Positions 1 to 27,195 of a DNA stretch of 64,000 bases are shown here, one piece after another. The translations under genes and the position numbers were made by a program. Source of the stretch: Oscillospiraceae bacterium (GTDB lineage Bacteria; Bacillota; Clostridia; Oscillospirales; Ruminococcaceae); the NCBI GenBank assembly GCA_045643005.1, contig JAZUJY010000152.1, positions 483 through 64,482 of the forward strand, in the 5' to 3' direction. Numbering within the stretch: position 1 is the stretch's first letter; the number at the start of each line of letters is the position of its first letter. The notes under the pieces are model-generated. The model was given only the letters and a program-made list of their open reading frames with translations. It ran no database searches and was not told where the DNA came from.

Positions 1-857
1 TGAATATAATTTCCTATTACGTGTTTTTCAAAAAACTTCCATGTTAAATGCATTGGATCTATGTTATTTTCTTCAATATATTTTCTGTCCTCAACATCAG
101 GAAAAAGAACATTCGAATGACAAATGAAGCTGAAATCATCACTTTTTTCAGGCATATCAAGAATATAGAACCTGTAATCTTTTGAATTTCCTTGTTCTTT
201 AGTTCCAAAATTGGCTATACATTCATTTTTATTATCTTCAGAAGGTATAAAATCAATATTATCAGTAATCCAAATATGAACGACCGGAAAAATATCACCA
301 CATTTCAAATCAGATTCACCAATATATGATTTAATTATACGATAATCAGGATCTTCTTCAAAATAGTCACCTATTTTCTGAACAAAAAGATATTTATTCA
401 GCATATTATATTGATTGGCAGTTTCTCCTTTAAATTCATAACGAAAAATATCTCCATCAGACCAATTACATTTTATGTATTTCTTTTTTCTGAATTTTTT
501 TATTTTCGGCTGTTCAGAATTCAGTTTAACTTTTAGTTCTTCAAGAATCTTTTTACGTTCATCTCCGGTTTTTTCGGATATAGCATACCATTTCTCCAAT
601 TCATATGAACCTTCAATACAGGATATGGCATTTTCTTTGATTTTCTCAGTAAGTCTGCCCGCCTGCCACATTATTTCTGCTAGTGACATCCAAAAAAGTT
701 CTCCGTCTTCAGGATCTTCAATATACATTTTAAATTCTTTGAGCGTATTATTTAATGCTTCATCATCACTAAATCCATACTTTAAAAAAGCTGTGTAAAA
801 ATCTCTGACATCACCATAAACGTCATTCTGATTTATTTTCACACCCCATGCGCCCAT
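1..857 (-). CDS. Putative immunity protein (DUF4259-like N-terminus); 3' end lies outside the window
   Basis: Not in the ORF track because no stop lies in the window. Manual translation from ATG 857..855 (complement) reads MGAWGVKINQNDVYGDVRDFYTAFLKYGFSDDEALNNTLKEF...HLTWKFFEKHVIGNYI, open down to position 3. The ATG is 8 nt after the stop of toxin ORF 865..1686, with GGAG ~10 nt upstream. The MGAWG..N.D..D start matches my recollection of DUF4259 immunity-type proteins; no search was run. Confidence 0.6.
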   Translation of the reverse strand, partial: MGAWGVKINQNDVYGDVRDFYTAFLKYGFSDDEALNNTLKEFKMYIEDPEDGELFWMSLAEIMWQAGRLTEKIKENAISCIEGSYELEKWYAISEKTGDERKKILEELKVKLNSEQPKIKKFRKKKYIKCNWSDGDIFRYEFKGETANQYNMLNKYLFVQKIGDYFEEDPDYRIIKSYIGESDLKCGDIFPVVHIWITDNIDFIPSEDNKNECIANFGTKEQGNSKDYRFYILDMPEKSDDFSFICHSNVLFPDVEDRKYIEENNIDPMHLTWKFFEKHVIGNYI

Positions 858-864
858 TTTTTTA

Positions 865-1686
865 TCACTCCTGTTTTATTTTTTTTAATATTTCATCAAA
901 TAAATAAGCGTATACTTCACCCGCTTTTTTAAATGTATCATACCCTTTACCATCAGGATTAACACCATTTATTTGATTATTGTATTTTTTATTTTTATTT
1001 TTTGTCCCAAAACGTTCAATTCCAATCTGTTCCATTCCTCTGCCTGCTTCATTTGTAGGATTTTGATACAAAGTCACTAAATTTCTTGAATCTGCACCAT
1101 CTCCTCCTAATTGTTGAGCAATTAAATGACTTCGTGCATGTCCTGCGCCACCATGACTTAAATAGTTTCCATCTATAAAACCAGAAGGTCTAATATTCTT
1201 GTTAGCAATTGTTCCAGCCATAGGCATAAATCTAGTTAATTTTGCTATTGCCCCTGTTGCCCTTCCAAGCTCGTCCAGTTCGCCATAAATGATCCATCCT
1301 AAATCGTCATTATCCTTTTTATAACGTGTTTCTTCAATAACGGCATCATTTACATCTATAGAATCCAATGCACCATCTGTAATCATCTCACAAATTGTAT
1401 CACCAAACAACATTACTAAAGGTGCAGCAAACAATGTTGTAAACAATGTGATTCTTAGAGCTTTTAATGTGTTAATCGCCAGTAATGTTGATATATCTGA
1501 TACGCCTTCTGCTGCATCAGACATTACACTTGAAATAGCAAAATCGCTCGAGGTCATATATCCGCTTGGATCCACATTCATTACAGGATCTGCATTTGCA
1601 TACAGATATTTATGCAGTGAAACCGGATCAAATATGCTTCCGGGATACGTATCCATCGACGTAAATGTTCCCGTCTGCGGATTCAT
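865..1686 (-). CDS. Orphan RHS C-terminal toxin cassette 1: RHS core tip + hydrophobic pre-toxin segment + Endonuclease_NS_2-like (HNH/beta-beta-alpha-Me type) nuclease
   Basis: It starts with MNPQTGTFTSMDTYPGSIFDPVSLHKYLYANADPVMNVDPSGY, identical to the core tip of the large RHS gene. The frame stays open upstream (EGETENSYLYCGEQFDNATGLYYLRARY) without an ATG or SD, so it looks like a silent cassette. The nuclease motif is GGAGHARSHLIAQQLGGDGADSRNLVTLYQNPTN. Confidence 0.75.
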   Translation of the reverse strand: MNPQTGTFTSMDTYPGSIFDPVSLHKYLYANADPVMNVDPSGYMTSSDFAISSVMSDAAEGVSDISTLLAINTLKALRITLFTTLFAAPLVMLFGDTICEMITDGALDSIDVNDAVIEETRYKKDNDDLGWIIYGELDELGRATGAIAKLTRFMPMAGTIANKNIRPSGFIDGNYLSHGGAGHARSHLIAQQLGGDGADSRNLVTLYQNPTNEAGRGMEQIGIERFGTKNKNKKYNNQINGVNPDGKGYDTFKKAGEVYAYLFDEILKKIKQE

Positions 1687-1770
1687 GTATCTTGCTCTGA
1701 GATAGTAAAGCCCTGTTGCATTGTCAAACTGCTCTCCACAGTAGAGATAACTGTTTTCAGTTTCTCCCTC
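1559..1770 (-). repeat. RHS core-tip repeat, copy 1 (212 bp, near-identical to 6091..6302)
   Basis: Direct nucleotide comparison with 6091..6302 shows only a few mismatches. The plus-strand shadow ORFs 1448..1705 and 6049..6237 end in the same peptide YPLGSTFITGSAFAYRYLCSETGSNMLPGYVSIDVNVPVCGFMYLALR. Confidence 0.9.
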
Positions 1771-1774
1771 ATAA

Positions 1775-2647
1775 TTGATGACACCATAGCATCAAAAACA
1801 AAACCATCATCAAAAGCATTACATCCAATAGAAGATGCATACTTCCACCAGTCTCATCTTAAAGGAAAGCAGGATTATGGACATCAGGCAGTTGGTGTTA
1901 TGCTTCCCTGCAACGGAATAACTCTAAATTATGATATTATTCTGTACGATAAATCTGTAAGTAAGATAGACCTTGTCTGCGGTATAGCTGACGAACTTAA
2001 AACTGCACCTAATGTTTCATACCTGCTTTGTGACAGCTGATATACATGCAGCAAAGTAACAGAAGCTTTTATCAGAAAAGGTTTCTATACAATCGTAGCA
2101 CTTAAAACAAACAGAATAATTTTTCCTTCAGGGGTTGACATCAGCATCAGTTAAGCTTGCTGAAAATATTCTGGAAGAAGATAATTTCTTTTACCCCGTT
2201 ACAGTTAAAGGAAACAAATACCTTGTTTTCAGATATGAATGCAATTTTAAAGATATTGATAACGCCGTTGTTCTCATAACTTATCCAGCAGGAGCTTTTC
2301 ATAATAAAAAGCCTCTTAGAGCTTTTGTAAGCACTAATTCTGCTCTTTCAACTGAAGAGATACTCAACATTTTTACTGAAAGATGGGATATTGAGGTTTT
2401 CTTTCGTGAGAGCAAGTCAAAACTTGCTCTTGATAAGTACCAGATAAGATCTTCAAAAGGAATAAAGAGATTCTGGACTATTTCATCTCTTGCTTATCTT
2501 ATTGCCTGTTCTGAATCTGATAGTTTTGACTTTACTGAGGGTTACTGCATTCTCATGAAAAAAATCAGTAATGATCGAATGGCTAATATTTTTAAATTTG
2601 CAAAAGACTGTGATACTCTTGAGGCCTTTTTGTCTTTTGTTGCTTGA
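1775..2647 (+). mobile_element. 5'-truncated, degenerate IS remnant (DDE transposase, IS4/IS701-like)
   Basis: The C-terminal part reads ...ILNIFTERWDIEVFFRESKSKLALDKYQIRSSKGIKRFW (the RW.IE..F...K......Q.R motif of IS4/IS701-type DDE transposases). Upstream, frame ...NVSYLLCDS*YTCSKVTEAFIRKGFYTIVALKTNRIIFPSG has TGA at 2038..2040 where DSWY is expected. There is a frame change near 2130. No N-terminal region or start codon is present. Confidence 0.6.
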
Positions 2648-2695
2648 ATCAACTTGTGCATTTTGACTATGATTTTAAAATTTGCTCATTTATAG

Positions 2696-3205
2696 TTAAT
2701 AACATACGATGCCATTATCAAATAAATCCATCGGCAAAAATTCTATCATTTCAGGAATCTCATTATTAACTAGTTTATACAAAAACTCTGTAGTAGTCAT
2801 ATCAAATTCATAGTAATCAGCATCCTCACCATATACTATGATAGTAATTGATTTAGTATTAATCTTCCAAAAAAATAATGCACCATTATCACAAATAGCC
2901 CACGGAATTATTCCATTTTTTTGCGGATAAAAATCAAATGGATAACCTTCACCCTTTTTATCTGTTAATCCATATTGATGATAAGCTTCTTTTAAATCTT
3001 CATATATTTCTTTTTGTTCCTGTATCTGTTCATTCCATACGTCATCATAAGGTGAAATAAACCAGATATAATCATTAAAGCCCCCAATTTGTTTTTTAAA
3101 AAATAAAGATGCATCTTCAGGCAATAACACACCTTTAATATCTATCATCGATTCCGTGTTATATTTTCTTGAATATTCATGTAATTCAGTTAGTAAATCA
3201 TTCAT
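2696..3205 (-). CDS. SMI1/KNR4 (SUKH-superfamily) immunity protein
   Basis: 169 aa. It carries LLPEDASLFFKKQIGGFNDYIWFISPYD plus later aromatic/acidic blocks typical of SUKH-1 immunity proteins. It overlaps the end of the upstream nuclease remnant by 8 nt. Confidence 0.7.
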   Translation of the reverse strand: MNDLLTELHEYSRKYNTESMIDIKGVLLPEDASLFFKKQIGGFNDYIWFISPYDDVWNEQIQEQKEIYEDLKEAYHQYGLTDKKGEGYPFDFYPQKNGIIPWAICDNGALFFWKINTKSITIIVYGEDADYYEFDMTTTEFLYKLVNNEIPEMIEFLPMDLFDNGIVCY

Positions 3206-4054
3206 AATAATTTAAACTATTTCCTTTCGAATTATTAAATATATTAACATACATTCTAAATCCTCTATTTCCATATGCTATCATTTGAATACTATATGGC
3301 ATTAGTTCATTTGATAAATAATATGGAATAACAGCATAATATACAGTTTCTCCTGAATCTCTTTTGGCTTTGACTTGAAATTCTACTTTTTTCATTATTG
3401 AATTATTAACTGCGTTTTGATAAAGTGTTACTAAATTTCGTGGATCTGAACCATCTCCGCCCAACTGTTTTGCAATTAAATGTCCTCTAGCATGTCCAGC
3501 ACCACCTTTACTTATTGAATTACCATTAACAAAACCTGAAGGTTTAATACTTGAAAGTGCTTTCGTGCCAGCTTGTGGCATAAAGCGCGTTATTTTTGCT
3601 AACGCTCCAGTTGCTCTTCCTAATCCATCTAATTCACTGTAAATTATCCAACCTATGTCATTTTTTTCTTTTTATTACTAACATCTTCTTGTACTAATTC
3701 TTCTGTAACACTATTACTAATATCCGTAGAATCCAGTACACCATCTGTAATCATCTCACAAATTGTATCACCAAACAACATGACTAAAGGTGCAGTAAAT
3801 AGTGTTGTAAACAATGTGATTCTTAGAGCTTTTAATGTGTTAATCGCCAGTAATGTTGATATATCTGATACGCCTTCTGCTGCATCAGACATTACACTTG
3901 AAATAGCTAAATCGCTCGAGGTCATATAACCGCTTGGATCCACATTCATTACAGGATCTGCATTTGCATACAGATATTTATGCAGTGAAACCGGATCAAA
4001 TATGCTTCCGGGATACGTATCCATCGACGTAAATGTTCCCGTCTGTGGATTCAT
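3198..4054 (-). pseudogene. Orphan RHS C-terminal toxin cassette 2 (Endonuclease_NS_2-like nuclease), frameshifted
   Basis: ORF 3653..4054 (MNPQTGTF...ELVQEDVSNKKKKMT*) and ORF 3198..3581 (…GGAGHARGHLIAKQLGGDGSDPRNLVTLYQNAVNNSIMKKVEFQV…VYYAVIPYY…) are two halves of one gene. The piece between them reads DIGWIIYSELDGLGRATGALAKITRFMPQAGT in the second frame, parallel to DLGWIIYGELDELGRATGAIAKLTRFMPMAGT of cassette 1. The frame breaks in the A7 run (T7 on plus, 3661..3667). Confidence 0.75.
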
Positions 4055-4089
4055 GTATCTTGCTCTGAGATAGTAAAATCCTGTTACAA
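3927..4089 (-). repeat. RHS core-tip repeat, copy 2 (~165 bp; homology to 6091..6302 decays upstream of YYLRARY)
   Basis: Direct nucleotide comparison. It is also ~390 bp near-identical to cassette 1 (about 3745..4089 versus 1380..1725), covering the hydrophobic pre-toxin segment. Confidence 0.85.
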
Positions 4090-4240
4090 TGTTTTCAAAG
4101 TTCTGATCTGTAGTTTACAGCCTCATATTAAAACTATTTGGTCAAGATAAAGCCCATAATCTTTTATGTGGAGGAATATCTGCATCGTCGTTATAAAAGC
4201 CTCCATGTTCATTCTTCAATGTCATCCCCTAATTTTTAAC

Positions 4241-4546
4241 TCATAAAATTATTTCATATAGTTTATAAATTACGAAATCACCTTGCTCAAAAACCAGATT
4301 ATTACCATTGCACATCATACTTTCACGCAATTTTATAAATTCATTTAGTTTTTCTATATCATCAAACAATCCATTACTGTTTAATTTGAATTTTATTAAC
4401 TGCTCAATCCTTTTCAAATAAACATCACTATATACTGCTGAATAATAAGAGCCACCTGAATAAGCATAATCATATCCTATAAATTTAGTACGCCAATTAT
4501 TGATGGATAATTTAGGTTTTACCTTGTCTGTTTCGCAAAGCAACAT
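4241..4546 (-). CDS. Hypothetical protein (possible orphan or second immunity gene, or a remnant)
   Basis: 101-aa ORF located between the cognate immunity candidate and orphan cassette 2. I see no convincing SD before the ATG and recognise no motifs. Confidence 0.3.
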   Translation of the reverse strand: MLLCETDKVKPKLSINNWRTKFIGYDYAYSGGSYYSAVYSDVYLKRIEQLIKFKLNSNGLFDDIEKLNEFIKLRESMMCNGNNLVFEQGDFVIYKLYEIIL

Positions 4547-4597
4547 ACGAAATCTATAGAAACCTGATCCTGCTCGCCGGTGATATCCTCTTCGTCA

Positions 4598-4945
4598 TTA
4601 TATTTCATACCTATTGGTAAGGGTAATATACTCTTTAAACTTTTTATACAATCTAAAAAAAAGCTGTATTTCATTTTGATTTGAAGAGTTATTTTTTTGA
4701 ATTATTTCATACCAGTATTTCATATTGTGATTTTCATTTATTTGTTTTGAATCATACATCTCATTGATTACAAAATCTCTAAACATGCAATTAAAGTTTT
4801 TCTCATAACAAGTTTGCTGATTATTAATTTTTCTTGAATACAAATAACCCTCTATAAAATGATATAACGATTTATTATCAATATCATCACCTAAAAAAGC
4901 TCCAGGTCTTATTTCGATCTGTTTTATTAATTCATCTAAATTCAT
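4598..4945 (-). CDS. Putative cognate immunity protein of the RHS C-terminal toxin
   Basis: 115-aa ORF that starts 5 nt after the RHS stop on the same strand. It has no signal peptide (MNLDELIKQIEIRPGAFLGDDIDNKSLYHFIEGYLY...). The call rests on position only. Confidence 0.5.
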   Translation of the reverse strand: MNLDELIKQIEIRPGAFLGDDIDNKSLYHFIEGYLYSRKINNQQTCYEKNFNCMFRDFVINEMYDSKQINENHNMKYWYEIIQKNNSSNQNEIQLFFRLYKKFKEYITLTNRYEI

Positions 4946-4949
4946 TTTA

Positions 4950-7900
4950 TCACTCCAGTATCTTATAATCTATTGCACCAAAATAATACCCTAAGTCTCT
5001 AAGCCAATTTTTAAAATCCATTCCATCAAGTGAAAAATTATCATATACTATTCCATCAACTAAAACGCCATAATGATATCCATTGTTGCCAACATCTCCA
5101 TATTTGTCAGAATAAATATGTGGATATTCAGTAGTAACATAAACTTGATTTGATGGGATACCAGCTGCATTTAAATTTGCAGTAAGCTCATTTGCGAAAT
5201 TATCACACTGACCACTTTTCTTATATTTATCAGGAACTTTACTAACTGCTTTTTCTATATCTGACTGATCATAATTATGCACCAGCACCCCATCATCGCC
5301 AACAAAGTACGTATTATAACCTTCAACCTCAAGGTTATAAACCTTTATCACTTCATCCGGCTTTTCAAGCTCAGATCCTGTTACAACCGCACTATCTCCG
5401 TCAATAAGGTAAACCTCATCACCGTTTTCCAGATCACCTGCTGCCACCCAGCCTTTATCCATGACATAGAACGGATGATTTGTTGTTGTATCAATATCCC
5501 CTGCCGTTGTCTTCAGATGCAGTATCTCATCCTGATCATGAACATATACCGTCAATACTTCCTTAAGTTCTGTCTTTCCGGTATATATATCATATGCCCA
5601 TACCTTGTCCCCGACTTCGATCTCATCTATTCTTTTCTGTCCGTCTTCGGTTGATACAAGTGTATCTCCGGTGAAACATGTCTGACTCATGGACATCAGC
5701 TGAATAATAAGTTCGATTGTTCCCGTTACTGCAAGATCATATTTGCCTTCCTTGGTATAGTGAATAATACTCTGTACTTGTTGTCCAAGTCCTGCTGCGG
5801 TAAATATCTTTGTAAGAACCGGTCCGAGTCCCTTGATCTTACACATGAGATTGATAAATACCCCGGTTACTATTCCTCTTGCAGCTGCCCAGATTATATC
5901 TTCTGCAGTACTGTCAGGATCAAGTGCTGCCTCCATTATCTGTCTTCCGATATCATAGATCGTGCACATTATGTTTACAACATTAAGTACATTTTTCATC
6001 TTCTGATATGTTTTCAGATAATTCTTATATGTCTGGCTGTCAAGGATCTTGTCTATTACATTTCTTACCGATAATTCACCAAGTGTAAAATATCCGCTTG
6101 GATCCACATTCATTACAGGATCTGCATTTGCATACAGATATTTATGCAGTGAAACCGGATCAAATATGCTTCCGGGATACGTATCCATTGATGTAAATGT
6201 TCCCGTCTGCGGATTCATGTATCTTGCTCTGAGATAATAAAGCCCTGTTGCATTGTCATACTGCTCACCACAGTAGAGATAACTGTTTTCAGTTTCTCCC
6301 TCCTGAGATATCATATTTCCCCATGCATCGTATACATACGTATCTGTTACGTTTCCTTCTATATCCGAAAGCTGTCTTACTGAGCCGTGTCCGTCTGTCA
6401 GATATATGGATATTACTCCTTCTCTTTCCTGACTTATCAGTTCTTCGCCTCTTGTATAATGACATTTTACGTTTCCGTTTTCATCTCTTTCTTCAAGTAC
6501 CTGTGTGAGACTTCCGTATATATCATTGAGGTAATATGTTTTTTCTGCTTCTGTGAGCTTTGCTGTTCTGTTTCCTAAGCCGTCATATTCATACTCTTCT
6601 ACTGAAACATTATTTCCTTCCTGTACTGTTGCTCGGATCATTTTGTTTTCAGTATTGTATGTAAATGCTGAGATCTTTTCTCCTTCGGTTTTGCTTATCA
6701 GATTTCCTGCTTTGTCATATTCATAGACTGTTTCATTTTCACTGACAAGCTGATTAAGAACATTGTATACATATTCTGTTCTGACTCCGTTTTCGGTTTT
6801 TGCTGTTCTGTTGCTTACCTCGTCATATTCATATGTATATTCTGTAACTTTACCTTCATTGTCAGTTATCTTTTCTCCGGTCAGTCTGTAGAGTGCATCA
6901 TAGGTATACTCAACTGTTCTGTCAGTTTCTTCTGCCTTTATGCGTTCTCCTGATTTTCCGAGGCTATAAATATATGATGCCACAGTGCTGTTGTTTTTGT
7001 CAAGTATTTTTTCACTTACCAGACGATTTAACTTGTCATAGCTGTAGGTCACAGTCAAACCGTTTGCATACTCAACCTTTGATCTGTTTCCGTTTGCATC
7101 ATAGCTGTATGTTGTCGCATAACCGTTTTTGTCAACTACTCTTTCAATTCTGCTAAGTGCGTCATAGGAATATGTTTCTGTTCCATACGGCGTTTTTACT
7201 TTTGTAAGTCTTAAATAATCATCATATTCATATTCAACATAACTTCCGTCAGGATATCTTACTTTAGTAAGTCCGTCCATATTATCATAGTCAAAATATG
7301 TAGTCTTTCTGTCCATTGTGACAGATACAAGCAGATCATTTTTATATGAATAGGAATATTTATGATCGGCTGTTGTTTTGCTTATCATTCTGTCATACTG
7401 ATCATACGCATATTCAACAGTATTTCCGCCAAAATCTGTTGCTGACAAAACATTTCCGGTATTGTCATATGAAACTTCTGCTGTCTGACCTGCTGCATTT
7501 GTTGTTTTTACTGCTCGTCCGGCATTATCATAAACATAAGTTGTTACATGTCCGGCTGCATCTGTCACAGAAATAAGATTTCCAACTTCATCATACGAAT
7601 ATCTGGTGATATTTCCATAAGCATCAGAAAAACTGATAAGTCTGTCTGCTCCGTCATAGCTGTACTCTGTGATATATCCGTTCTGGTCTTTCTGAGAAGT
7701 CAGTCTTCCTCTTGCATCATATGCGGATTCAGAAGTTGTTCCGTCTGCATAAGTTACCTTTGTTCTGTTTCCGTTATCATCATATGTATATGTTACAGCA
7801 TTTCCTTTTGCATCTGTTACGGATGAGATCTGTGAATGTGAATCATATTTGAATTTCACTGTGTTTCCAAGAGCATCGATTATCGCAGTATTTTTTCCTG

Positions 7901-10900
7901 CCTTGTCATACTCATATTTCGTCTCTGCTCCGGTTACATCTGTAATGGTCAGAAGGTTATAAGCTGCATCATACAGATATGTTTCTGTAAGTCCGTTTGG
8001 ATATGTTTTTGAAAGAAGATTTCCAACCTTGTCATATTCCATCGTAACTTTTCTTCTGAGTCTGTCTGTTGCTGTCAGAGTGTTTCCTTCTGCATCATAT
8101 GTAAATGATTCGGTTGACAGATCAGGGTAAGTAATTTCAGTTACGTTTCCTGCATAGTCGTATTCATAACATGTCTGTCTGCCTTTATTATCAGTTTCCT
8201 TTATCAGATTTCCTATGCAGTCATATTCCTTTGATATTTCGTTTTTATCACTGTCGATCACTTTTACAGCATTTCCGTAAATATCATATGTATAGTTTTC
8301 GGTATAGACCTTTTCTTCCCCGTCTGATGTGTATGTGATCTTTTTGGAAATACAGTTATCTTCTGAATCATAGGTAAATTCTGTTACAGTTCCGGCTCCG
8401 TTTGTTGCGGTCTTTACATTTCCTCTTTCATCATAGGTTATATTCATAAATATTCCTATGCTGTCAGTTACGGAGTTGAGTCTTCCCTTCGAATCATAAT
8501 CATATTCTGTTTTATTTCCAAGTGCATCTGTCGTTGAAGATGTCAGTCCCATATCATTGTAATCAAGCTTAAGAATATCAATTCCCATAGCATTTATGGA
8601 TGTGATCATTCCCTTGCTGCTGTAACCATTTGTTACCTTGTTTCCTTCAGGATCTGTCATGGAAAGCAGAAGTCCGCTTTCATCATAATTATATGATGTT
8701 TCATATCCGAGTGCATCGGTCATTTTTGTTTTGTTGCCGTGTGCATCATACTCATATGTTACAGTATTTCCATTAGGATCAGTCATGGAAGTTACATTTC
8801 CGTTTTCATCATAAATGTAAAGAGTAACTCCGCCGTTTCTGTCAGTTATTACTTCCTGTCTGCCTTCTATATCATGATCATATGTGGTTTCTTTTCCGGC
8901 TTCATCTGTTGTTTTTATCAGTCTTCCGTTTTCATCATATACATTTTTTGAAACCAGTTTTCCTCTCGGATCGTATACTTCAGTAATATAATGATCGCTG
9001 TATACAAACTTTGTACTGTTTCCGGCTTCATCAGTTACACATACAAGATCTCCGAAAACATCATATTCATACTTAACAGTTTTTCCGGTACTGTTTGTCA
9101 TTTCAGTTATTCGGTTCCTGTCATCATAAGTAAACCTGATGGATTTGTTCGCCGACTTATCGGAACACTGTATGCTGTCTTTGGAAAATGTTATTATTTC
9201 TCCGTTTAAAGCGATTACTTTAGTAAGTCCTTTGTTTTTGTCAATATAATACTTTGTACCGTCATTTCGGGTATACAGAAACTGCTCCGGTTCAAATATG
9301 TCAAAATCAGTTGTACACAGAATACCTGATGCACTGTCAAACATAAGATCAGATGACGAAATATCCACTGACTCAAGTTCGGACTTTGAACCGTTGAGCG
9401 CAATAAATTTTACATTTATATTCTGGTATGCAGGTTGAAATACACTCTTTTGCGGTGAATCGATCACCATTGCAAATTCATCCCTGATCCCGTTTCCGAG
9501 ATCAACATTTATTCTGTGTGTTTTGCTTTCCATAAACTGATAGGATGATATCGGTACTCTGCCTGATAATGTATCCGGTGACTGATACCAGTTTTCTGAC
9601 AGCTTGCTGCTGAGAGTGAGCGATACGTTGTTATATTCAACATCCCATCCATACCCGAACGCACCTTTATAATCCTTTTTACGGCTGTCATACGTCCTGA
9701 TAACATTTACCGGCACTCCGTTCACATCAAAGCTCATATCCTCAAAGCTGAGCGTGAAATTGCCTATCTTCATGTTTCCGGTCACATTTACCGTGATCAT
9801 GTCTGCTGCTGTGTACTTGTCACTGTATGCAGTAAGTCTGATATCATAATATCCGTTTTCAAGAAGTGTAGTATCAAATTTTCCTGATACTTCAGACTTT
9901 TTACCTTTGCTGCCTGAATCGAATACAACAAAGTTATTTTCACCGGCAGGTGAATATTCAAACTTATAGTCTGAGAATATCTTCCCTGATATCTCACCCT
10001 TTATTTCCGATACTGATTTCAGTTCTGACATTTCTTCAGGAGATGTGATCCTGCAGGTGTACTGTTCAGCCGGTGCTGTTCTGTTATGTTTTACGGTTAC
10101 AGATGTATCTTCTGATACTGATATGTCATCTTTTAATACTTTCAGAGTAACAGTATATTTTCCGTCATCAAGCATTGAGGAATTTACTGATTCTGATATG
10201 CTGCAGTCATTTCCTACAGTGCCTTCCTTTGAAAATACAGGTTCACCGCTGTCATCTTTTTTTCTGACAGTGAGTTCATATTTTCCGGTTATGACAGATG
10301 CGTCAGTCTTTGCTTCTATTCTGATCGTATCATCTGCATAAACTGATGGCTGAGGCTTGTCAAATATGATAAGACTGTTCTCAAGATCTGCCGGATCTGT
10401 TTCCCTGTTGTTTTCTATCTGATAACATGCACCTGCATATGAGGTGTTGCCGCCGTTGTCGGTTACAGCTACTCTGATCTCATATGTTCCGTCTTCAAGT
10501 AAAAATGTATCCCATACGCCGAGTATACCGTCTCTGATCTCATTATATGAAGCTGCTATCGGTGTATATCCGCCTGAATCCTTCTTTCTGTATTCGAGAA
10601 CATATTCTCTCATCATTGTTTCATCAAAAGCAGAACCTTCAATATTTACTTTTCCGGACAGCTTTGACTCGTTTTCAGGTGATGTGATCTCTGCTGAAGG
10701 GAAATCATGGTCTGAACTGTCTTCAAATACGATTTCAAAACTCTTTTCATAAGTACGGTTTTTTGAGTCTGTCGCAACAGCCTTAAATACTACCACTCCC
10801 GGCTCTGCCTGAGTAAATTTTATCTCTGACGGTCCGTCTGCGATCTGTTTGTCGTTCTTGTATATGAGCAGCTTGACAAGACCGTCCTTGTCATCAGCAT

Positions 10901-13900
10901 TTATCTCAAGAGTTACTATTTCTCCGATCTCAGCTTTTTCTGATGAAGTATTGAATGTTATTTCAGCAGGAGTATCTTCTTTTTCCTGCTTATAGTCTGT
11001 ATTTGTATTTTTTTCTTTGGTTATTTTCTCGTTTGAAGATGATAACTGGTTCTTTTCTATTTTAAGATCCACTTTGCAGTATGATCTGTTTGACGACTTG
11101 TCACACGCTTCAATGAGTACAGTGTACTTTCCTGCTTCGGAATATCTGAATGATACTATCTCTGAATCAAACACTTCCTCACCTGAAGTCAGAAGCTCCC
11201 TGCTTTCTTCAGAACCGTTTTCAGTCAGGCTTACCTTGTAACTGTCAAATTCAGGATCCTTTATGGTTCCTTTTATCACAACAGTATCATCAGTAACTGT
11301 AATATCACTTTTTGTATCAACTATTATCTCAGGAGGATCAAGGTCTCTTCTGTCTGTAACTGTTATCGTCTTTGTATCACTGCCCTTATTTCCTGAAACG
11401 TCCTCACAGTCTGCCCTGATCACAAGTTCTCCGGCTCTGTCACATTTGTAAACAAAGCTTCCCGGGAACTTTGATATTGCTTTGCCTCCGACATATGTAT
11501 TTACAGATTTTATTCCTATATTATCATCCGGTGCAACAGAAACAAGGATCTCATCTCCGAGGCTCGGATTTTCATCTGATACAGTTATAACTACAGTCGG
11601 CGGTTCATCGTCTGAAAAAGGCTCGACATCATCGCCCTCAAGCTCGCTTATCACTTCTACACACGGGCTGCTCCATTCGCCAAGCTCATCACATACCATG
11701 TATTTCTGAAGATATACCTGATTTGCGTCTATTATTTTCGGAACGGTGCCGTTTGTCCAGCTGCTTTCATCAACTCTCTTCCACTCATATTTTTCTTTGG
11801 TTATACCCTTGTTTTCCTTACTGAGTGCATCTGTATCATACGCGCTGAATTCCAATTCACAGATATATTTTTTCTGTTCCTTTGCCTTTGAAAGCTTTGC
11901 TTTGATCTCTGCTGAAGGTTTGCTGTGAACAAACAGCCTGTCTGTCCACTTAACTTTTTCAGACCACTTTTTGTATGAATCAAGTGATGTGTTTCCGTTT
12001 GTCGGATCATCCATCAGCTTCGACCAGATACTGTAGCATCCGGTTTCACTGAAGGAAACAGGAGCTTCTTCAAGAGTGTATTTTCCGCTTTTGCCGGTGC
12101 TGTTTTCATATACCGAAGCATCAAGCTCATATTCCCACACCTGTTTTCCGACAGGATCATTTTCTCTGTCGATATAACTGTTGGTATATTCGATCTCATC
12201 AGATGTCGTGATCGTATCACCGATATCATAATTTATGCCTGACAAAGAATTTAAAATATAGTTTTTAAGTATATCCTTGTTCTTTATAACATCATACCAG
12301 TCGGCATATATTCCGTCTGCTGATCTTAAAACTTTGTCATACTGCTGTTTTGAAGCAGCAGTTCCGAGACCTATCAGAGCAGCATCATTTTCTATAAGAG
12401 ATTTTGCTGCACATCCGACTGACTGATCATCACTCAGATCATAGTTTTTGCTTTTGCTCAGATTTATAACAAAATGTTCGGCAGAATCTCTCCATTCATT
12501 TTTCTCAAGGATCTCACTGAATTCACTGCCGTTTACTGTTGACATTTTTATATCGCTGAATACAAAATATGATTCCTGTTCACAGTAATGTGATTTATGG
12601 AAAATTACCGGTCCGAATCCTGTTCCGCTTTCCTGCTCCGGCAGAACATAGTTATCCAGCATGAGCGTATCATTAATATATACAGTAAGTGTCTTCTCAC
12701 TTACGAGCAGTCTGATGTTGATCTTGTCATCGGTTTTCATCTGACTGAGAATATCATAAATATCCGAGTCAGACGGGAAATCTGATGCACTGAAGCTGCG
12801 TATGGGAGAAGCTCCTCCGCCGTTTCTGAAGGTTTCGATATCAACATCATCAAATTTATAGAGCTGAAAAGCACCTTCTGTTCGTATAAATGCAAGACCT
12901 GTTATTTTCTTTATGGTTTCTGAATCAGGATCATCAGGATCTGTCTTCTCATTATATATTTTTGTATTGAAGAGGAATCCTCCGCCTATCATACTATGCC
13001 AGTTATTATCATCTCTTCGCATATCAAATGACAGGATCCTTCTTGATTTGATACCGTCATCAACGAAAAGCCAGTCACGGAACGGATATACATGATAACC
13101 AAGCATTTTTACGGAATTATCCTCATATGTTATATGGTCCGGATAGATCGTTCCGTACAGATCCATATAATTTTTGTGATCATACTCTTCCCATGCAAAT
13201 TTGTCTTTGGCTGTAAGAGTGGATGCAGATATGGTGTTCAGATTTACATTGTATCCTCTCTCTTCAAGGTCGGCTTTTATTTCTTCAATGTTTTCATTAA
13301 GAATGTCTATATCATCAAGATCAGCATTTGACGCTGTAACTACGATATCAACATTTTTAGCCTTACTGATGCCTGAATATGACTCAGGTGCTTCATTTGT
13401 AACCTCTGTTACAAAATTTCCGTCAGCTGCTGATGACGTATCAGCTACAAGATATGACTCTTCTGTCAGAAGTGAAGGAATAGTATCATCGATCTGTTCT
13501 GCAACACTCAGCTTAAATTTATACTTTCCGACTGAATCAGCTGTATATACGGCATTTTTTTCGTTTCCGACAAGAAATACCTCTTCCTTTTCATCTGAAA
13601 AATCTCCGTCGTTATCGCTGTCAAACTGTACAGACCATACTCTGCTTCCGATAGTATCTCCGTCAGGAGAATATGATGTGTCTTCGAGTTTTATCTCGGC
13701 TTTTCCGTCTTCGTCTCTGCCTGTGATATCAGTTTCCTTCCAGAAGCCTGCCACTGGGGCAATATCCTCAGTTACATTTATTACTTCATAGTATTTTACA
13801 CTCTTGCCTGTATTATCTTTTCCGGAAAGCTCGGCATGATAAATACCCGGCTTCGTGATGATAAGGTTCTTCGTAATTTCTGTAGAAGTACTCTCATCGA

Positions 13901-14795
13901 CCTTAACACATGCTGCATCTTCAGGCAAGTCAGCTGTAAAATTCCATTCAAGAGAAGAAACATCAATATCCTTAAGACCAAAGCTGTCAGAAATATCAAG
14001 CGTTATCTTTCTGTTCTGCTTATATGTTTCTTCAAAATTCTTAAATTCTATCTCCGGTGCAAAGTTTACAAGCGAGGAATCATGATCTGATATACTGTTC
14101 ATCTTAAAATCAGTACCGTTTATCTCAACATTTTCAGCAACGATCATTCCGTTTACGGTAAGATTTTTAGCGTTTATCTCAACCTTGCCTTTTGGTGCAT
14201 AGAGAATTCCATTGATAGTGATATCTGTTCCCTGAACAGTAATATTTCCGTTTTCAGAATACAGAAACAGCTCTGCACTGTCTTCATTTTTCACAGCATC
14301 ATACTGGATATCGTTTTTGGCTCTGATATATCCTTTACCGGAAAATGCTGTTCTGTCTATCCACAGATCACCTGCTGACATTACAGAATCAGAAATATTG
14401 TATTCATTTGTATTAAAATGAACTTTATCTTCTGTAAAAACATTTTTGTAGTTTACACCGTTTTTCAGCTGATTTCTGTAATCAGGCATGACTGTGCGCA
14501 CATCTGTCTGTGAAACAGCCTGAACATTTCCTGATATTTTACCGGAATTTAATGTATCATTTACATAGCAGCTTCCGTTTCCGCAAAAATCAAATTCACT
14601 GCCGGAAAATACTCTTCCGTTTATGGAGGCTCTCTCCATATTTACTGTGATCTTCTTTTCTGAATATATGGTGTGCTCCATATCAAGAGGTGCAGCAAAA
14701 ACACTCTCAGGAAGCGATGACATTCCAAGCTGAAGTGTCATGGTAAGAGACAACGCTGCTGCAAGAGCTTTTTTCAGTATCTTTGTATGCTTCAT
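4950..14795 (-). CDS. Secreted RHS/YD-repeat polymorphic toxin (about 3,281 aa) with HINT domain and C-terminal toxin
   Basis: The likely start is [34 protein letters not shown] (signal peptide) at 14795, with AGGAG ~10 nt upstream; the track start at 14858 overlaps the upstream gene. The N-terminal half contains Ig-like/beta-sandwich repeats. Dozens of YD repeats follow (YDxxGN..., e.g. [26 protein letters not shown]). The RHS core end is [16 protein letters not shown]...NVDPSGY. Confidence 0.92.
   Translation of the reverse strand: [3281 protein letters not shown]
4953..5273 (-). other. C-terminal 107-aa toxin domain, family not recognised (possible papain-like Cys/His/Asp fold)
   Basis: Sequence: [40 protein letters not shown]...[23 protein letters not shown].... 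There is a single Cys preceded by Gln, a His in a hydrophobic strand ~55 aa later, and Asp/Asn ~12 aa after that. Confidence 0.4.
5274..5678 (-). other. HINT (Hedgehog/intein-like) autoprocessing domain inside the RHS C-terminal cargo
   Basis: 135 aa. It begins [30 protein letters not shown], has TTNHPFYV in the middle, and ends [23 protein letters not shown]. Block A Cys, block B TxxH and the terminal HN are all present. The next residue is Tyr. Confidence 0.8.
6090..9715 (-). other. YD-repeat/RHS shell-encoding region of the toxin gene
   Basis: It runs from ...[26 protein letters not shown] (about 9660) to NVDPSGY (6090). The YD/YxYDxxGR-type repeats are continuous. Confidence 0.85.
6091..6302 (-). 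repeat. RHS core-tip repeat, master copy inside the full-length gene
   Basis: It encodes [36 protein letters not shown]...DPSGY and is matched by 1559..1770 and 3927..4089. Confidence 0.9.
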
Positions 14796-14796
14796 G

Positions 14797-15780
14797 TTAT
14801 CTCTTCTCCTTTCTTCTGAGTACAATGCTTCCTGCAGCTGATACCCCTGATACAACAAGCATAATAATACTTCTCACAGGGAATGAATCTGAAGTATCAG
14901 GTGAAGAAACCAGCCTGACTTTACTGTCATCTCCGGTATTTACATCATTTCTGATACCGTAGTATGTAACAAATTCTTTGTTTAAAACATTTGACTCAGG
15001 TTCCCATTTTACAGCAGCAGCTGTATCTGTCAGTATGGAATTTATATCCGGAGTATATTCCCACACTGCATCGTAAAGTACACCCCAGTCAGCAAATATC
15101 AGACTGTCAGGCGTATTTTCATCTGTATTTGTTTTTCCGTAAGCAGCTATTTTTTCATTGCTTCCTGCTGTAACGCTCCAGCTGTCAGGAATATTTTCAC
15201 TGAACACAGCCTCGTTTGAGACAGGTGTATTGTCAACTCTTACTGACGGAACATCGTCCCCGGAAAGCATCGGATCAATAAGGATCCTGACACCTATGGA
15301 GTCATTTTCCCCTGCCGAAATAACTTTGTAGGAAATTCTGAGCATATCTTCATAATCAGGTGTATATACTTCAGAAAAAGCAAGAGTCTGCTCTATTATC
15401 ACATCTCCGAATTTCTGAGCCGAAATATGACATCTGTTGTCAATATCATACTTCGGCTCACCAATATCCTCACCTCGTCCGTACTCATAGTACGAACCGT
15501 TGATGCAAAGTGTAGTATAACCGGAGTAAAAATTTCTGTAGGTTATATTTTTATTGTCGTCCTCATCGTTATATGTCTTTCCGCCCGTCGTTGACAGCTT
15601 GTATCTGAGATACTCTCCCTCTCTCTTATCCTGTTCAACGTTTAAGCTTAAAAAAGAATTTTCCATGGAGACATTGTTAAAATACGCCTTACTGTCCGCA
15701 GCAAAGCATACTGCTCCTGTAAAAAGCGAAATTGCGAAACTTGCAGTTAATACGATCTGTGCAATTTTTTTAGCTTTCAT
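14797..15780 (-). CDS. Secreted, C-terminally anchored protein of unknown family, translationally coupled to the RHS gene
   Basis: The likely start is MKAKKIAQIVLTASFAISLFTGAVCFA (signal peptide) at 15780, with GAAGGA 5 nt upstream. The C-terminus is ...SSPDTSDSFPVRSIIMLVVSGVSAAGSIVLRRKEKR (hydrophobic helix plus basic tail). Its stop TAA is separated from the RHS ATG by 1 nt. Confidence 0.7.
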   Translation of the reverse strand: MKAKKIAQIVLTASFAISLFTGAVCFAADSKAYFNNVSMENSFLSLNVEQDKREGEYLRYKLSTTGGKTYNDEDDNKNITYRNFYSGYTTLCINGSYYEYGRGEDIGEPKYDIDNRCHISAQKFGDVIIEQTLAFSEVYTPDYEDMLRISYKVISAGENDSIGVRILIDPMLSGDDVPSVRVDNTPVSNEAVFSENIPDSWSVTAGSNEKIAAYGKTNTDENTPDSLIFADWGVLYDAVWEYTPDINSILTDTAAAVKWEPESNVLNKEFVTYYGIRNDVNTGDDSKVRLVSSPDTSDSFPVRSIIMLVVSGVSAAGSIVLRRKEKR

Positions 15781-16084
15781 TTTCGTCCTTCTTTCAAAAA
15801 AATAAAGGGACAGCGATTTGCTCGCCATCCCCTCAGATATTTTAGCACACTATTATAAAGAAAGAAATCCATAAAAATTCTAAAGATTTTCATTTAAGTT
15901 ATTAAGGATATGTGCAGATATTATAATTATTTTGCGGTTTAAAACATTTTGTATTATCATGAAAAGTAGATCTTACCAGCGCTGATTTTACATTCAGATG
16001 TGAAGTAACTGCCGTTCTAAAATATAACGGCAAACGCAGCAGAGAAGTAATAGGACATTCAAACGAATTAAAATTTACTATTGG

Positions 16085-16106
16085 TTCAAAGCTCTGTGTT
16101 GTTATA
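16085..16106 (+). repeat. 22-bp box TTCAAAGCTCTGTGTTGTTATA (short form of the intergenic repeat family)
   Basis: Exact string match to the other boxes and to the joined ends of the long elements. Confidence 0.85.
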
Positions 16107-16230
16107 AAAAGGCTGTTAAACCATCAAGCCCTAAATTTACCGGCATATTAGCCCCCGGCACTCTTGAATCTGTAAATCTTTCATAAAAAAACAATTATCA
16201 CAAAACGCCGCTGATATATAAATAAAAAAA

Positions 16231-16275
16231 AGCCCCTTAAAGCTCCCGTTGAAGCTGCAAGGGGCTGTTTTCTTT
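16231..16275. terminator. Orphan bidirectional rho-independent terminator-like hairpin
   Basis: The stem AGCCCCTT (16231..16238) pairs with AAGGGGCT (16259..16266). It is flanked by A8 on the left and GTTTTCTTT on the right. No annotated gene ends here. Confidence 0.5.
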
Positions 16276-16489
16276 ATAATACACATCCTTCCATATTTTA
16301 CCATTTTTAAATAAAATATTTCATAAATATTTGAATTGCAATATTGAAAAATATACAATTATATGATACAATATTGATATGTAAATATTAAATATGACTA
16401 TAAATTTAAATAAATTTCTTTCGTCTGAACAGATTGCAAATGCTCAGGCGATATTATATCAGCAAAAAGTTGAAAGGGGTATTGTTTTT

Positions 16490-18160
16490 ATGGCTGAAAT
16501 AACGATCGAACCAAAGAGCTGCAGACAGATCGAGGAGATATCAAAACGTAAAGAATCCATGAAAGATCTTTATCACCTTACTGACGAACAATTTGAAGCA
16601 GGACTTTATCTTATGGTCTATGCAATGGCATGCGGCGGTTTTGATGTAAAAAACTGCAGGGATGACTTTACGAACAAATGCATAGACACTGTTATCTCCG
16701 TTGAAGAACCGGAATACAGAAATCAGTTTATGAACAGGATCTCACATACCTCACCATATACAGGAAGATTTGAACCATGTGAACCAAATGCCGATCATCA
16801 GTCATTGTTTTTCTCCTTCCTTATCACAGAACTAAAAAACACTGACAATATTTTTGGTTTTCTTACCGCTCTTTACAACCAGGATAAAGAAAATTTCGGA
16901 TATTTTATCATTATCGTGGCAAAGGATCTTCTTGATCACAATGACCCGAACGATTTTCAGAATATAATAAACACTTTTTCCGTTATTTCAAAATGGGCAT
17001 GCACAGATCCGCAAAAGACTGACTGGCTTGCAGTTCAGTTTATTACTGCAGTAAAGAGCATCAAGAGCTACGATCATTCAAATATCATTCTTTCATTTCT
17101 TACTCCTTTAAAGGACGGCTTTATAACTGAAAAGCAGTACAATCTCAGACGTGCTGAATATCTTTCATATGCTATAAGACTGTCGGATGATGTTACAGTC
17201 AACAATTCAGTATGTTCAGTAATAAAAGACATTTTAAATACCACAAACACACCGGAAGCCGCAGATTATTATGCAAGAGCACTCTCTAACGCAGCATATC
17301 AGAGTCATTCAAGTGAAAAGGCTCTTATCTACGCTTCTCTCATAAAAAGCGATGTTCTGGAAAAATCAACAGACTTTCAGTCATCCAAAGCAGCACTTGC
17401 TTATGCACGTTCTCTTTCAGTCGCAGCACATTTTTCCGATGACCATCAGGTTTGCCTGAAAGCTGCAGAGCTTATAAAAAAAGATCTTATCAACAGCGAT
17501 GAGCCGAAATATCACACAGCGGAAATTTCTACCGAATATGTAAATGCCATCGCTTCTTCAGATACCATTGCCTCAATTTCAGCAGCTGAAACCGAAGAGC
17601 TTGCTGAACTGATCTGGGATGAGATCCTGTGCAGTTCTGAAAAATCATATAAAAATGCTTCCAATATCTCAAAATATGTCGGTCTCCTGCTTCAGGCATG
17701 TATAAAATACACTGATGTAAAGGAACGTGCCCGCATTACCGATATGATCTCAGAAGTTTTCGACGAAACAAATCCGGGAGTACTGATAAAGGATACTGCA
17801 ATTACATATGCACAGTCAGTATATGAAACGGCAAAGCTCACAAAGGATCCGAAAATATGCATAAAAATGGCAGACAAGATAATCAAAGATCTTTTAAACA
17901 GCACCATAGAAGAATTCAAAAACACCGAAGTTGCAGAAGCTGCTGCCAAAATATTATTTATAGCTGCAAACAATACACCGGAAAACAAGGATAAGCTCGA
18001 AATAACATACAAAATGAAAAAAGACCTTATAATTCACTTTGATTCAGAAGTGATAAACAAGCTTCAGTCTGAAATAAAAGCACAGATACCGGAACCGGAA
18101 AAACCTGATAAGCAGGAAAAAGCAAAAGGCGGACTTTTCGGACTGTTCAGAAAGAAATAA
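16490..18160 (+). CDS. Hypothetical protein with ~6 degenerate ~44-aa two-helix repeats
   Basis: The ORF track start is 16394. I prefer ATG 16490 (MAEITIEPK) because AAAGGGG lies ~10 nt upstream. The repeats each begin AADYYARALSNAAYQS / AALAYARSLSVAAHFS / ISTEYVNAIASS / ISKYVGLLLQAC / TAITYAQSVYETAK / VAEAAAKILFIAAN. The tail is basic and amphipathic: KGGLFGLFRKK. Confidence 0.6.
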   Translation: MAEITIEPKSCRQIEEISKRKESMKDLYHLTDEQFEAGLYLMVYAMACGGFDVKNCRDDFTNKCIDTVISVEEPEYRNQFMNRISHTSPYTGRFEPCEPNADHQSLFFSFLITELKNTDNIFGFLTALYNQDKENFGYFIIIVAKDLLDHNDPNDFQNIINTFSVISKWACTDPQKTDWLAVQFITAVKSIKSYDHSNIILSFLTPLKDGFITEKQYNLRRAEYLSYAIRLSDDVTVNNSVCSVIKDILNTTNTPEAADYYARALSNAAYQSHSSEKALIYASLIKSDVLEKSTDFQSSKAALAYARSLSVAAHFSDDHQVCLKAAELIKKDLINSDEPKYHTAEISTEYVNAIASSDTIASISAAETEELAELIWDEILCSSEKSYKNASNISKYVGLLLQACIKYTDVKERARITDMISEVFDETNPGVLIKDTAITYAQSVYETAKLTKDPKICIKMADKIIKDLLNSTIEEFKNTEVAEAAAKILFIAANNTPENKDKLEITYKMKKDLIIHFDSEVINKLQSEIKAQIPEPEKPDKQEKAKGGLFGLFRKK

Positions 18161-18262
18161 AAAAACTACAGCTGCATTAAAACAAAAAATGTAGCTGTTT
18201 TTATAAGCAGAGCTCCCGGGATCTATACTGTCAGAAGAACATTTATCATATCAACAAAAAGG

Positions 18263-27068: not shown

Positions 27069-27195
27069 AAACTCGCTCCCTTTCCCTATATGCATTTTTG
27101 CATATTAATCTATCTTTATTATATCACTTATTTTGCATTTTGGCAAATATTTTTTCACTGAGAATAGCTTTATTATTTTTTTATCAAAAAAAATA

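Follow-up and report, generated by a model that had tools for sequence, protein, structure and literature searches.

A probable Sec-dependent, WapA-like RHS polymorphic-toxin locus with a conserved upstream partner gene in an Oscillospiraceae bacterium

A stretch of 64,000 nucleotides (nt) of contig JAZUJY010000152.1 from an Oscillospiraceae bacterium (the window, whose coordinates are used throughout) carries a toxin locus whose genes, as read from the sequence, are all on the minus strand. The order is a gene for a secreted partner protein (14797-15780), a gene for a large rearrangement hotspot (RHS) protein (4950-14795), a candidate immunity gene, and then a relic and two orphan cassettes. 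Judged from the sequence, the locus probably encodes an RHS polymorphic toxin of the WapA-like, Sec-dependent kind, with which related Gram-positive bacteria would antagonise one another. An earlier note on this DNA had proposed the same RHS/WapA-type logic of toxin, immunity and displaced orphans, which agrees with the domain matches, with a collapse of identity among relatives, and with the pairing of toxins and immunity genes elsewhere. Each of the five parts it named is present on the minus strand by open reading frame (ORF) reading and family searches, but its parts list is incomplete, having overlooked a frameshift in the first orphan, a relic immunity gene and an insertion sequence (IS) remnant. 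Its bounds of 865-15780 cover the core span, but the locus is longer, because the immunity gene of the second orphan begins at 857 and continues past the first position of the window. The nearest relatives are in Ruminococcus/Oscillospiraceae, and the proposal of a cellulosome-bearing organism is confirmed by the dockerin-bearing enzymes in the window, where Pfam identifies a dockerin-bearing glycoside hydrolase family 9 (GH9) protein, a GH2 protein, CotH/Cthe_2159 proteins and a NAGPA protein.

The RHS gene, defined by its ORF and by Pfam and NCBIfam matches, codes for 3,281 amino acids (aa) plus a stop, and is organized as a leader, a long stalk, an RHS shell and a variable C-terminal region. 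The signal peptide (approximately residues 1-36, MKHTKILKK...SVFA/AP; 14688-14795) was read from the sequence and not from a predictor, and by eye its sequence, MKHTKILKKALAAALSLTMTLQLGMSSLPESVFA/AP, is an N-terminal Sec leader such as WapA-type toxins have. The stalk (approximately residues 37-1650; 9846-14687), delineated with Pfam, AlphaFold (AF2) and Foldseek, contains a DUF7305-like beta-helix, PKD/immunoglobulin (Ig)-like sandwiches, a jelly-roll-like domain, small alpha/beta domains, and Y_Y_Y/Big_7/Big_13 Ig-like repeats, with the PKD, Y_Y_Y, Big_7 and Big_13 assignments being several weak Pfam matches; both the leader and the Ig-like repeats had been anticipated. In an AF2 model of residues 30-1100 (pLDDT 82.9), beta-sandwich and small alpha/beta domains are strung in a chain behind a beta-helix. 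A specific receptor-binding fold was sought with this 1,071-residue model in Foldseek and none could be assigned, only generic multi-Ig/MG chains being returned (TM ~0.1). A link between the stalk and L-type lectins (through proteins P0038 and P0039) was rejected, there being no Pfam lectin match in residues 500-930 of the window protein; the lectin-like hits are probably explained by DUF7305, which is present in P0038 (residues 297-390) and also in the window stalk. No solved relative was found for either the stalk or the toxin tip in PDB sequence searches, and no wall-binding (CWB2 or LysM) family was found in residues 1-1632 with Pfam, even at E <= 10.

The RHS shell (6090-9776), identified with Pfam and NCBIfam, consists of a DUF6531 plug, YD repeats and an RHS-associated core. 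The plug (PF20148, residues 1674-1722) scores 28.8 bits against a cut-off of 24.1, the repeats match RHS_repeat in 18 stretches (Pfam, E 2e-119) and YD_repeat_2x in 14 stretches (NCBIfam, E 1e-97), and the core (Rhs_assc_core, TIGR03696, residues 2822-2901) scores 61.5 bits against a cut-off of 32.5. The core ends in DPVMNVDPSGY, with Y2902 as its last residue, and D2871 and D2892 are also present.

Three elements follow the core. The first is a pre-toxin linker of 137 aa (residues 2903-3039; 5679-6089), recognized by hydropathy and from relatives, which contains a hydrophobic helix at approximately 2966-2994; it is kept together with the following HINT domain across many C-terminal regions and is 55-69% identical to many relatives. 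The second is a PT-HINT domain (5274-5678) extending from C3040 to H3173-N3174, recognized by Pfam (PF07591) and by intein N- and C-terminal motifs, with a match at residues 3046-3174 (E 3e-26 to 5e-27) scoring 95 bits against a cut-off of 27.7. Because the residue after Asn3174 is Tyr, cleavage rather than splicing is expected at this domain from intein chemistry. The third is the toxin tip of 107 aa (4953-5273), a predicted Tox-PL-2 papain fold (PF15643) with a Pfam match at residues 3180-3268 of 43.2 bits against a cut-off of 25. The tip carries C3197, N3238-x-x-H3241 and D3252-N3253, and thus the full C / NxxH / DN signature listed for Tox-PL-2, a family for which Sec export (given as type II secretion, 'T2SS'), RHS, HINT and Firmicutes are tabulated (PMC3482391).

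Relatives of the locus were gathered by way of the partner protein, the core end (one genome per species) and metagenomes, and are referred to below by locus number. The core-end search yielded 453 related stretches, mostly in Ruminococcus, Oscillospiraceae and Lachnospiraceae, the best core-end match in the species-representative genomes being 79%, and the metagenome scan returned close relatives on short contigs only. Orthologous RHS proteins share 40-70% identity per 100-residue block as far as residue 2900 and 2-24% after DPSGY, in accord with the earlier prediction that the region 3' of DPSGY is hypervariable over a conserved shell. The variable point is indeed at DPSGY across orthologues, but for HINT-type C-terminal regions it is after the 'LVHN' at the end of PT-HINT. 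Fourteen of 30 related C-terminal regions contain PT-HINT, and the tips include GIY-YIG, WHH, colicin-DNase, Ntox47, AHH and Tox-PL-2 domains. A search with the window C-terminal region showed that the linker-HINT module is common to 237 proteins and has many tip families attached (PF15650, PF15633, PF14412, PF15526, PF15652, PF14414/PF12639, PF15657, PF07927, PF18648 and PF15643). Among L086-L088 and an orphan in L009, which are the closest relatives, linker and HINT sequences hardly differ, and the sequences are unrelated exactly past LVHN. Fragments that start within HINT are also present downstream of RHS genes (L012:16807-19868, L022:12343-12513, L029:13802-15229, L040:7782-8117 and L047:2651-2917), and their sequences indicate orphan cassettes that would recombine at the HINT end, not at the RHS core end. 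With the divergence past LVHN, these fragments indicate that HINT-type C-terminal regions have one swap point at the core end and another at the end of HINT.

The candidate cognate immunity gene (4598-4945) codes for a leaderless protein of 115 aa and is identified from its own GGAG, its position and the pairing of its homologues. It starts at 4945, 4 nt after the RHS stop codon (TGA, 4952-4950), with the GGAG 9 nt upstream of the start, and corresponds to the small non-secreted ORF that the earlier note had placed close behind the RHS gene. A 101-aa ORF is next (4241-4546), with 43% identity to L053 1396-1689. It is a 5'-truncated relic of an immunity gene, since it matches only the C-terminal ~100 aa of an L053 ORF of ~186 codons (1141-1698), and that ORF follows a different RHS C-terminal region.

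The two displaced, 5'-truncated orphan cassettes each have 166-229 nt of core-end DNA that is almost identical to that of the expressed RHS gene, forming a direct DNA repeat of three copies (6307-6083, 4085-3920 and 1775-1551) with 93-94% identity. Orphan module 1 (3198-4088), defined by Pfam, the repeat and comparison with L012, has a core-end fragment, a hydrophobic linker and an Endonuclea_NS_2 nuclease, and is split into ORFs of 133 aa and 127 aa whose frames differ by 1 nt across an A-run at 3673-3661; the L012 homologue (15422-16261) is in one frame. The frameshift sits upstream of the nuclease domain (PF13930, with a GH...N core), which scores 65.1 bits (E 1e-17) in orphan 1 and 47.5 bits in orphan 2 against a cut-off of 27, the orphan 2 match spanning profile positions 9-92 only. 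The immunity gene of orphan 1 (2696-3205) codes for 169 aa and has a start that overlaps the nuclease stop (ATGAATGA); it is weakly SUKH-like, with a SUKH_6 match (E 0.026) that is below threshold in a permissive Pfam search. The plus strand at 1776-2647 contains a decayed, 5'-truncated remnant of an IS4-type DDE transposase (DDE_Tnp_1, E 2.5e-06), which has an internal stop and a frame change and no other copy in the window. The remnant abuts the point where the RHS-core homology of orphan 2 begins, and suggests an IS-associated rearrangement of the cassette array.

Orphan module 2 (865-1775) has a core-end fragment, with homology from 1775, and a nuclease, and includes a 273-aa ORF (865-1686) that starts from the internal Met. 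The nuclease is a variant Endonuclea_NS_2 with a differing C-terminal half and is apparently intact; the two orphans share 366 nt at 95.6% identity and then diverge inside the nuclease domain. The possibility that it is a truncated nuclease was rejected, as all of it can be aligned to the main C-terminal region of L025 (32%, residues 1-266). Its immunity candidate (1-857), of at least 285 aa (MGAWGVKINQND...), has the ribosome-binding site AGGAG ahead of it and is truncated at the edge of the window. Neither this ORF nor the 101-aa relic matches anything in NCBIfam or Pfam at permissive thresholds. Of the two further toxin/immunity pairs described in the earlier note, both stand as orphan modules marked by the core-end repeat, but orphan 1 is frameshifted. 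The toxin-stop/immunity-start junctions of the main RHS gene and orphan 2 are nearly alike, GGAGTGATAAAATG and GGAGTGATAAAAAAATG (4943-4958 and 855-872, minus strand); both these toxins end in Glu-stop, and the GGAG in the junction is the ribosome-binding site of the immunity gene.

The pairing of toxins with their downstream ORFs recurs beyond the window. An ORF start is present within ~140 nt of the RHS stop in 27 of the 30 related loci, mostly within 25 nt, and homologues of all three window toxins adjoin homologues of the matching immunity ORF in unrelated loci. In Ruminococcus flavefaciens ND2009 (L018), a homologue of the Tox-PL-2 tip (12401-12682) is directly followed by a homologue of the 115-aa protein (12729-13028), and the same pairing is found in L026. 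In L012, the homologue of the orphan 1 nuclease has directly behind it a homologue of the 169-aa protein with 53% identity, a pair also present in L040, L037 and L038. In L025 and L069, homologues of the N-terminal ~140 aa of the orphan 2 immunity candidate begin immediately behind the RHS stop, and others are in L039, L062, L063, L066, L076 and L083.

By every criterion that can be tested in sequence, the large protein is an RHS polymorphic toxin. Half of it is an Ig/PKD/beta-helix stalk, and the locus contains decay products (the frameshifted orphan, the relic immunity gene and the IS remnant), as might be expected if it were a large structural adhesin or surface fibre in which the C-terminal 'toxin' and the downstream ORFs are inert remnants. 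This is highly improbable in view of the RHS core, PT-HINT and Tox-PL-2 matches above curated cut-offs, the intact catalytic residues, and the retention of the tip and its neighbouring ORF as a pair elsewhere; the earlier note had also favoured an RHS protein over a plain adhesin, and searches with hidden Markov models place an RHS core followed by a toxin tip.

The partner gene is identified by its sequence, a GAAGGA ribosome-binding site and the TAA-C-ATG junction with the RHS gene. It codes for 327 aa from the ATG behind GAAGGA, an alternative longer reading being 343 aa from 15828. Its TAA (14799-14797) is followed by one C and then the RHS ATG (14795), with an AAGGAG inside the partner 3' end, so that the TAA-n-ATG coupling given earlier is exact, as is the length of 3,281 aa. 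The protein has a Sec-type leader with cleavage around CFA/AD (sequence reading) and an ectodomain of ~250 aa that is a beta-supersandwich in an AF2 model (pLDDT 74.5); Foldseek searches with this model return the N-domains of GH94/GH65 phosphorylases and YidC P1, with E values down to 7e-07. Its C terminus resembles a sorting signal, with SPDTS, a hydrophobic stretch and an RRKEKR tail, and homologues keep an xPxT[SG] motif, a hydrophobic stretch and an RRKEK tail, in which the T is invariant and the P nearly so. The description of the partner as secreted and C-terminally anchored holds for the secretion and the anchored-type tail, but the tail is a candidate sortase-type sorting signal and more than a membrane anchor. 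SPKTG/SPQTG is the sorting motif of Clostridioides difficile SrtB (PMC4155245 and related papers), and it is established for R. flavefaciens that sortase anchors surface proteins, by way of ScaE (PMC4081043). The architecture of the partner suggests tethering to the wall.

The association of the partner with the RHS gene is strict. Close homologues of the partner number only 24, all from Ruminococcus/Oscillospiraceae sources, and the partner gene is directly upstream of the RHS gene in every locus whose stalk is at least 46% identical to that of the window, amounting to ~12 distinct loci. The linkage holds across different genomic neighbourhoods and also in Clostridium collagenovorans, the stop-start junctions are overlapping or spaced by 1 nt, and partner identity and stalk identity drop in parallel across the linked loci. 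A Rosetta-stone search for fusions of the partner domain to RHS covered four large representatives, all LRR/Big_2-type or without a Pfam domain and none of them RHS.

By analogy with the proposal for MafA/MafB, the partner may tether or position the RHS protein on the wall, a role that we put forward tentatively. It could instead quite plausibly be an export or folding accessory, or an independent co-transcribed glycan-binding surface protein, with the toxin itself as described above. The modelled fold, which resembles carbohydrate-binding supersandwich domains and YidC P1, would suit such roles, as would the occurrence of the same domain at the head of many unrelated surface proteins, the non-canonical sorting motif in the window, and the use by Streptococcus suis of a different, SecF-like upstream accessory gene (PMC12704120). 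The strict linkage at ~12 distinct loci in varied neighbourhoods, the parallel divergence of partner and stalk, and an RHS protein without a wall-binding domain of its own argue for a tether, and these other roles for the partner are somewhat unlikely.

Several observations weigh against the reading of the locus as an active toxin and immunity system with a wall-tethered partner. Three concern the tether. SPDTS in the window partner departs from the canonical ...TG, and only 6 of 22 homologues have the G (SPKTG/SPQTG); a sortase gene is absent among the window ORFs of at least 150 aa scanned with Pfam; and the partner ectodomain is not RHS-specific, because the family also heads many unrelated surface proteins. 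A profile search gathers 1,333 representatives of this family (E <= 1e-3), which is without a Pfam model, and the domain is usually N-terminal in surface proteins of 500-3,250 aa with BspA-type leucine-rich repeats (BspA-LRR), InlB-B-repeat or Big_2 (P0040-P0188). The others concern toxicity and immunity. The 115-aa protein has no Pfam or NCBIfam match, including to Imm73, the immunity family reported for Tox-PL-2; orphan 1 is a pseudogene, unless the 1-nt loss in its A-run is an assembly error; and three loci with partner and RHS orthologues that share a conserved, hydrophobic C-terminal region of 211-212 aa (L001:19623-20990, L005:17993-19357 and L056:11129-12100) have no ORF within 300-450 nt downstream and no adjacent immunity ORF. 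The tip of these three could have a non-bacterial target, be membrane-active, or be non-toxic.

The same three loci bear on the question of whether the targets of the toxin are eukaryotic (rumen ciliates, fungi or host cells), as for Tc-toxin BC cocoons. Their tips without immunity ORFs would be compatible with such a target, as would the long lectin/Ig-like stalk, which could bind eukaryotic surfaces, and a Tox-PL-2 tip that is without a known target and, by PDB search, a solved relative. We nevertheless regard a eukaryotic target as improbable. In the window gene and most of its relatives, a small leaderless ORF is tightly linked and orphan toxin/immunity cassettes form arrays, which is the signature of kin conflict; many of the sister tips are nucleases; and no SpvB/TcB or TcA-like gene was found in the window scans, Pfam giving no match in the RHS protein or the window ORFs to the SpvB, MidN or TcA families that would mark a Tc BC component.

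Export of both proteins is predicted to be Sec-dependent. No type VI (T6SS) or type VII secretion system (T7SS) family is present among the window ORFs of at least 150 aa scanned with Pfam, both proteins have Sec-type leaders, and the earlier statement that no such secretion gene is visible and that export is presumably by Sec fits these results. Secretion genes were not seen in the flanks of the relatives' loci either, and Pfam finds in the RHS protein no PAAR, VgrG-binding or WXG/LXG domain of the kind that would mark a T6SS or T7SS effector. Because the view is limited to 64 kb, and some Firmicutes export RHS toxins by T7SS (PMC3482391, Table 1), a specialised apparatus encoded outside the window, T7SS or another, might be considered in place of Sec. 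Against it are the classical N-terminal leader on each protein, the absence of WXG/LXG and PAAR domains, and the absence of secretion genes from the scanned window ORFs and the relatives' flanks, which together make such an apparatus very improbable.

A mechanism can be proposed for the Sec-dependent toxin locus. The partner and the RHS protein would both be exported across the membrane via Sec, with a sortase linking the partner to peptidoglycan through its xPxT[SG] signal, and the partner would hold or position the RHS protein by binding its conserved N-terminal stalk. The RHS shell would enclose the C-terminal region, the aspartyl protease of the core would cut after DPSGY, and cyclisation of Asn3174 in PT-HINT would release the tip exactly where relatives diverge. 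In a neighbouring cell the tip would then work as a cysteine peptidase or deamidase, while the 115-aa protein would shield the producer and its kin, and the orphan immunity genes would shield against the nuclease tips of neighbours. Homologous recombination between core-end repeats could move orphan 2 onto the expressed gene, with deletion of ~4.5 kb.

Among known systems, the closest comparison is with WapA, which in Bacillus subtilis is a studied Sec-dependent, wall-associated RHS toxin. The 3,158-aa WapA of S. suis has been established by experiment as Sec-dependent, wall-associated and cut at conserved sites, with an upstream accessory gene and a non-functional downstream orphan (PMC12704120), in a paper that refers to the B. 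subtilis protein as well. The window locus resembles B. subtilis WapA and S. suis WapA-CT1 in its Sec leader, length of more than 3,000 aa, DUF6531 and YD shell, core with DPSG, variable C-terminal toxin, immediately downstream candidate immunity gene and truncated downstream orphans without a leader, and resembles S. suis in having an upstream accessory gene. It differs in lacking the CWB2 (B. subtilis) or LysM (S. suis) wall-binding domains, having instead a beta-helix/Ig stalk of ~1,650 aa, in having no adjacent sortase gene, and in having PT-HINT between shell and a tip that is of papain fold, not a nuclease. Relative to S. suis, the upstream gene codes for a secreted supersandwich protein with a putative sorting signal and not a SecF-like membrane protein, and there is one shell as opposed to the two Rhs domains reported there. 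The locus is thus filed under Sec-dependent RHS polymorphic toxins and not as a WapA orthologue, because there is no wall-binding domain within the toxin.

The Sec ('T2SS')/RHS/HINT/Tox-PL-2 architecture was catalogued in 2012 by Zhang et al. (PMC3482391), and the window protein has the same domain combination, with Firmicutes listed and C/NxxH/DN present (PMC3482391). The suggestion in the earlier note that there is little precedent is therefore apt for Ruminococcus but not for Sec-dependent RHS toxins generally, given WapA and this catalogued architecture (PMC3482391). Unlike the catalogue entry, Imm73 is not detected and the 115-aa ORF is in no described family, and the stalk and partner are outside that description.

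Arrays of Rhs orphans are known in Salmonella, Escherichia coli and Serratia, and the window cassettes are similarly displaced modules with short core-end homology, lacking a start, a leader and most of the shell, that can recombine onto the main gene. In contrast to those arrays, the host is Gram-positive and export is predicted to be by Sec rather than T6SS, there is a second swap point at the PT-HINT end in relatives, one orphan is frameshifted and the array is interrupted by an IS remnant. The orphan concept is cited in the S. suis study as well (PMC12704120). In Neisseria, MafA has been proposed to anchor MafB (PMC3482391, section 37), and the likeness is of a polymorphic toxin with a conserved lineage-specific N-terminal region whose gene always has that of a surface-anchored protein in front of it. 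The proteins themselves are unrelated, however; MafA is a lipoprotein in a Gram-negative envelope, whereas the partner has a putative sortase-type signal and the toxin is RHS-encapsulated. With the TcB/TcC cocoons of Tc toxins the locus shares an RHS/YD shell around a C-terminal toxin, with autoproteolytic release predicted from the sequence here, but it lacks an SpvB/TcB beta-propeller and a TcA injector and has a candidate immunity gene as well as orphan cassettes.

Much work has been done on RHS polymorphic toxins of Gram-negative bacteria that have a T6SS. To our knowledge, B. subtilis and a single study of S. suis are the only sources on display and delivery of Sec-exported RHS cocoons in Gram-positive bacteria. 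No paper on RHS toxins in R. flavefaciens was found in the literature searched. The locus indicates that Ruminococcus-like producers of cellulosomes are armed in the same way with a package of their own, which has a partner with a putative sorting signal, a long Ig/beta-helix stalk and a HINT-delimited swappable tip, and what is new is the conservation of the partner with the RHS stalk (~12 loci) and its putative sortase-type signal. It is possible, and we suggest it with caution, that in Ruminococcaceae the partner and the ~1,650-aa stalk form a module dedicated to displaying Sec-exported RHS toxins on the surface and delivering them, a Gram-positive functional analogue of MafA/MafB replacing the CWB2/LysM anchoring of WapA, with the linker and PT-HINT as a second swap and release point. 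No earlier description of this partner-plus-stalk module was found; the remainder of the system is an ordinary, well-preserved case of a known type.

Related loci occur often in rumen and gut Oscillospiraceae and are common in Ruminococcus genomes, the cultured strains 007c and ND2009 among them, and if active the system would add to the exclusion of one strain by another among fibre degraders. An orthologous partner and RHS pair (L039) in the cultured R. flavefaciens 007c offers an experimental route, and the 107-aa Tox-PL-2 tip and the 115-aa ORF are a candidate for an uncharacterised toxin/immunity pair.

The operon is preceded by a candidate leader of ~570 nt (15803-16385, minus strand), with a promoter-like site and two terminator-like hairpins, as identified by a consensus scan and by folding (z = -3.8). 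The promoter-like site (16385-16358) has 11 of 12 consensus matches, and the hairpins (16270-16225 and 15835-15803) are both upstream of the partner gene, the latter being followed by T7 directly before the partner ribosome-binding site. This second hairpin may be an attenuator. No Rfam family, riboswitch or known leader matched the sequence upstream of the operon. A comparable hairpin and T-run are ahead of the partner gene in L058.

A clade of RHS loci without the partner (L012:6-1235, L014:32-1669, L041:466-1065, L010:16-1153 and L069:22-2144) has, directly upstream of the RHS gene, a set of genes resembling Agr-type quorum sensing, comprising an AgrB-like membrane protein of ~200 aa, GHKL histidine-kinase ends and a LytTR-type regulator, as read from the sequence without hidden Markov models.

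Adjoining the locus on the plus strand (16394-21607) are two divergently oriented genes, for a 588-aa ORF without a family match and a 1,114-aa DUF4132 protein, which are not conserved beside orthologous loci. Elsewhere in the window, the minus strand codes for a BspA-type LRR surface protein (561 aa; 25410-27095) and a DUF4272 protein (401 aa; 29371-30576), with an overlapping 224-aa ORF (28872-29546) that has no family match. Dockerins are present on CotH kinase-like proteins and on a NAGPA phosphodiester glycosidase (40515-43130, 55756-61437 and 47748-48965); two of the CotH-dockerin proteins have a Cthe_2159 domain and one has a lamin-tail domain, and these dockerin-CotH and NAGPA proteins are an unusual, non-glycoside-hydrolase cellulosome cargo.

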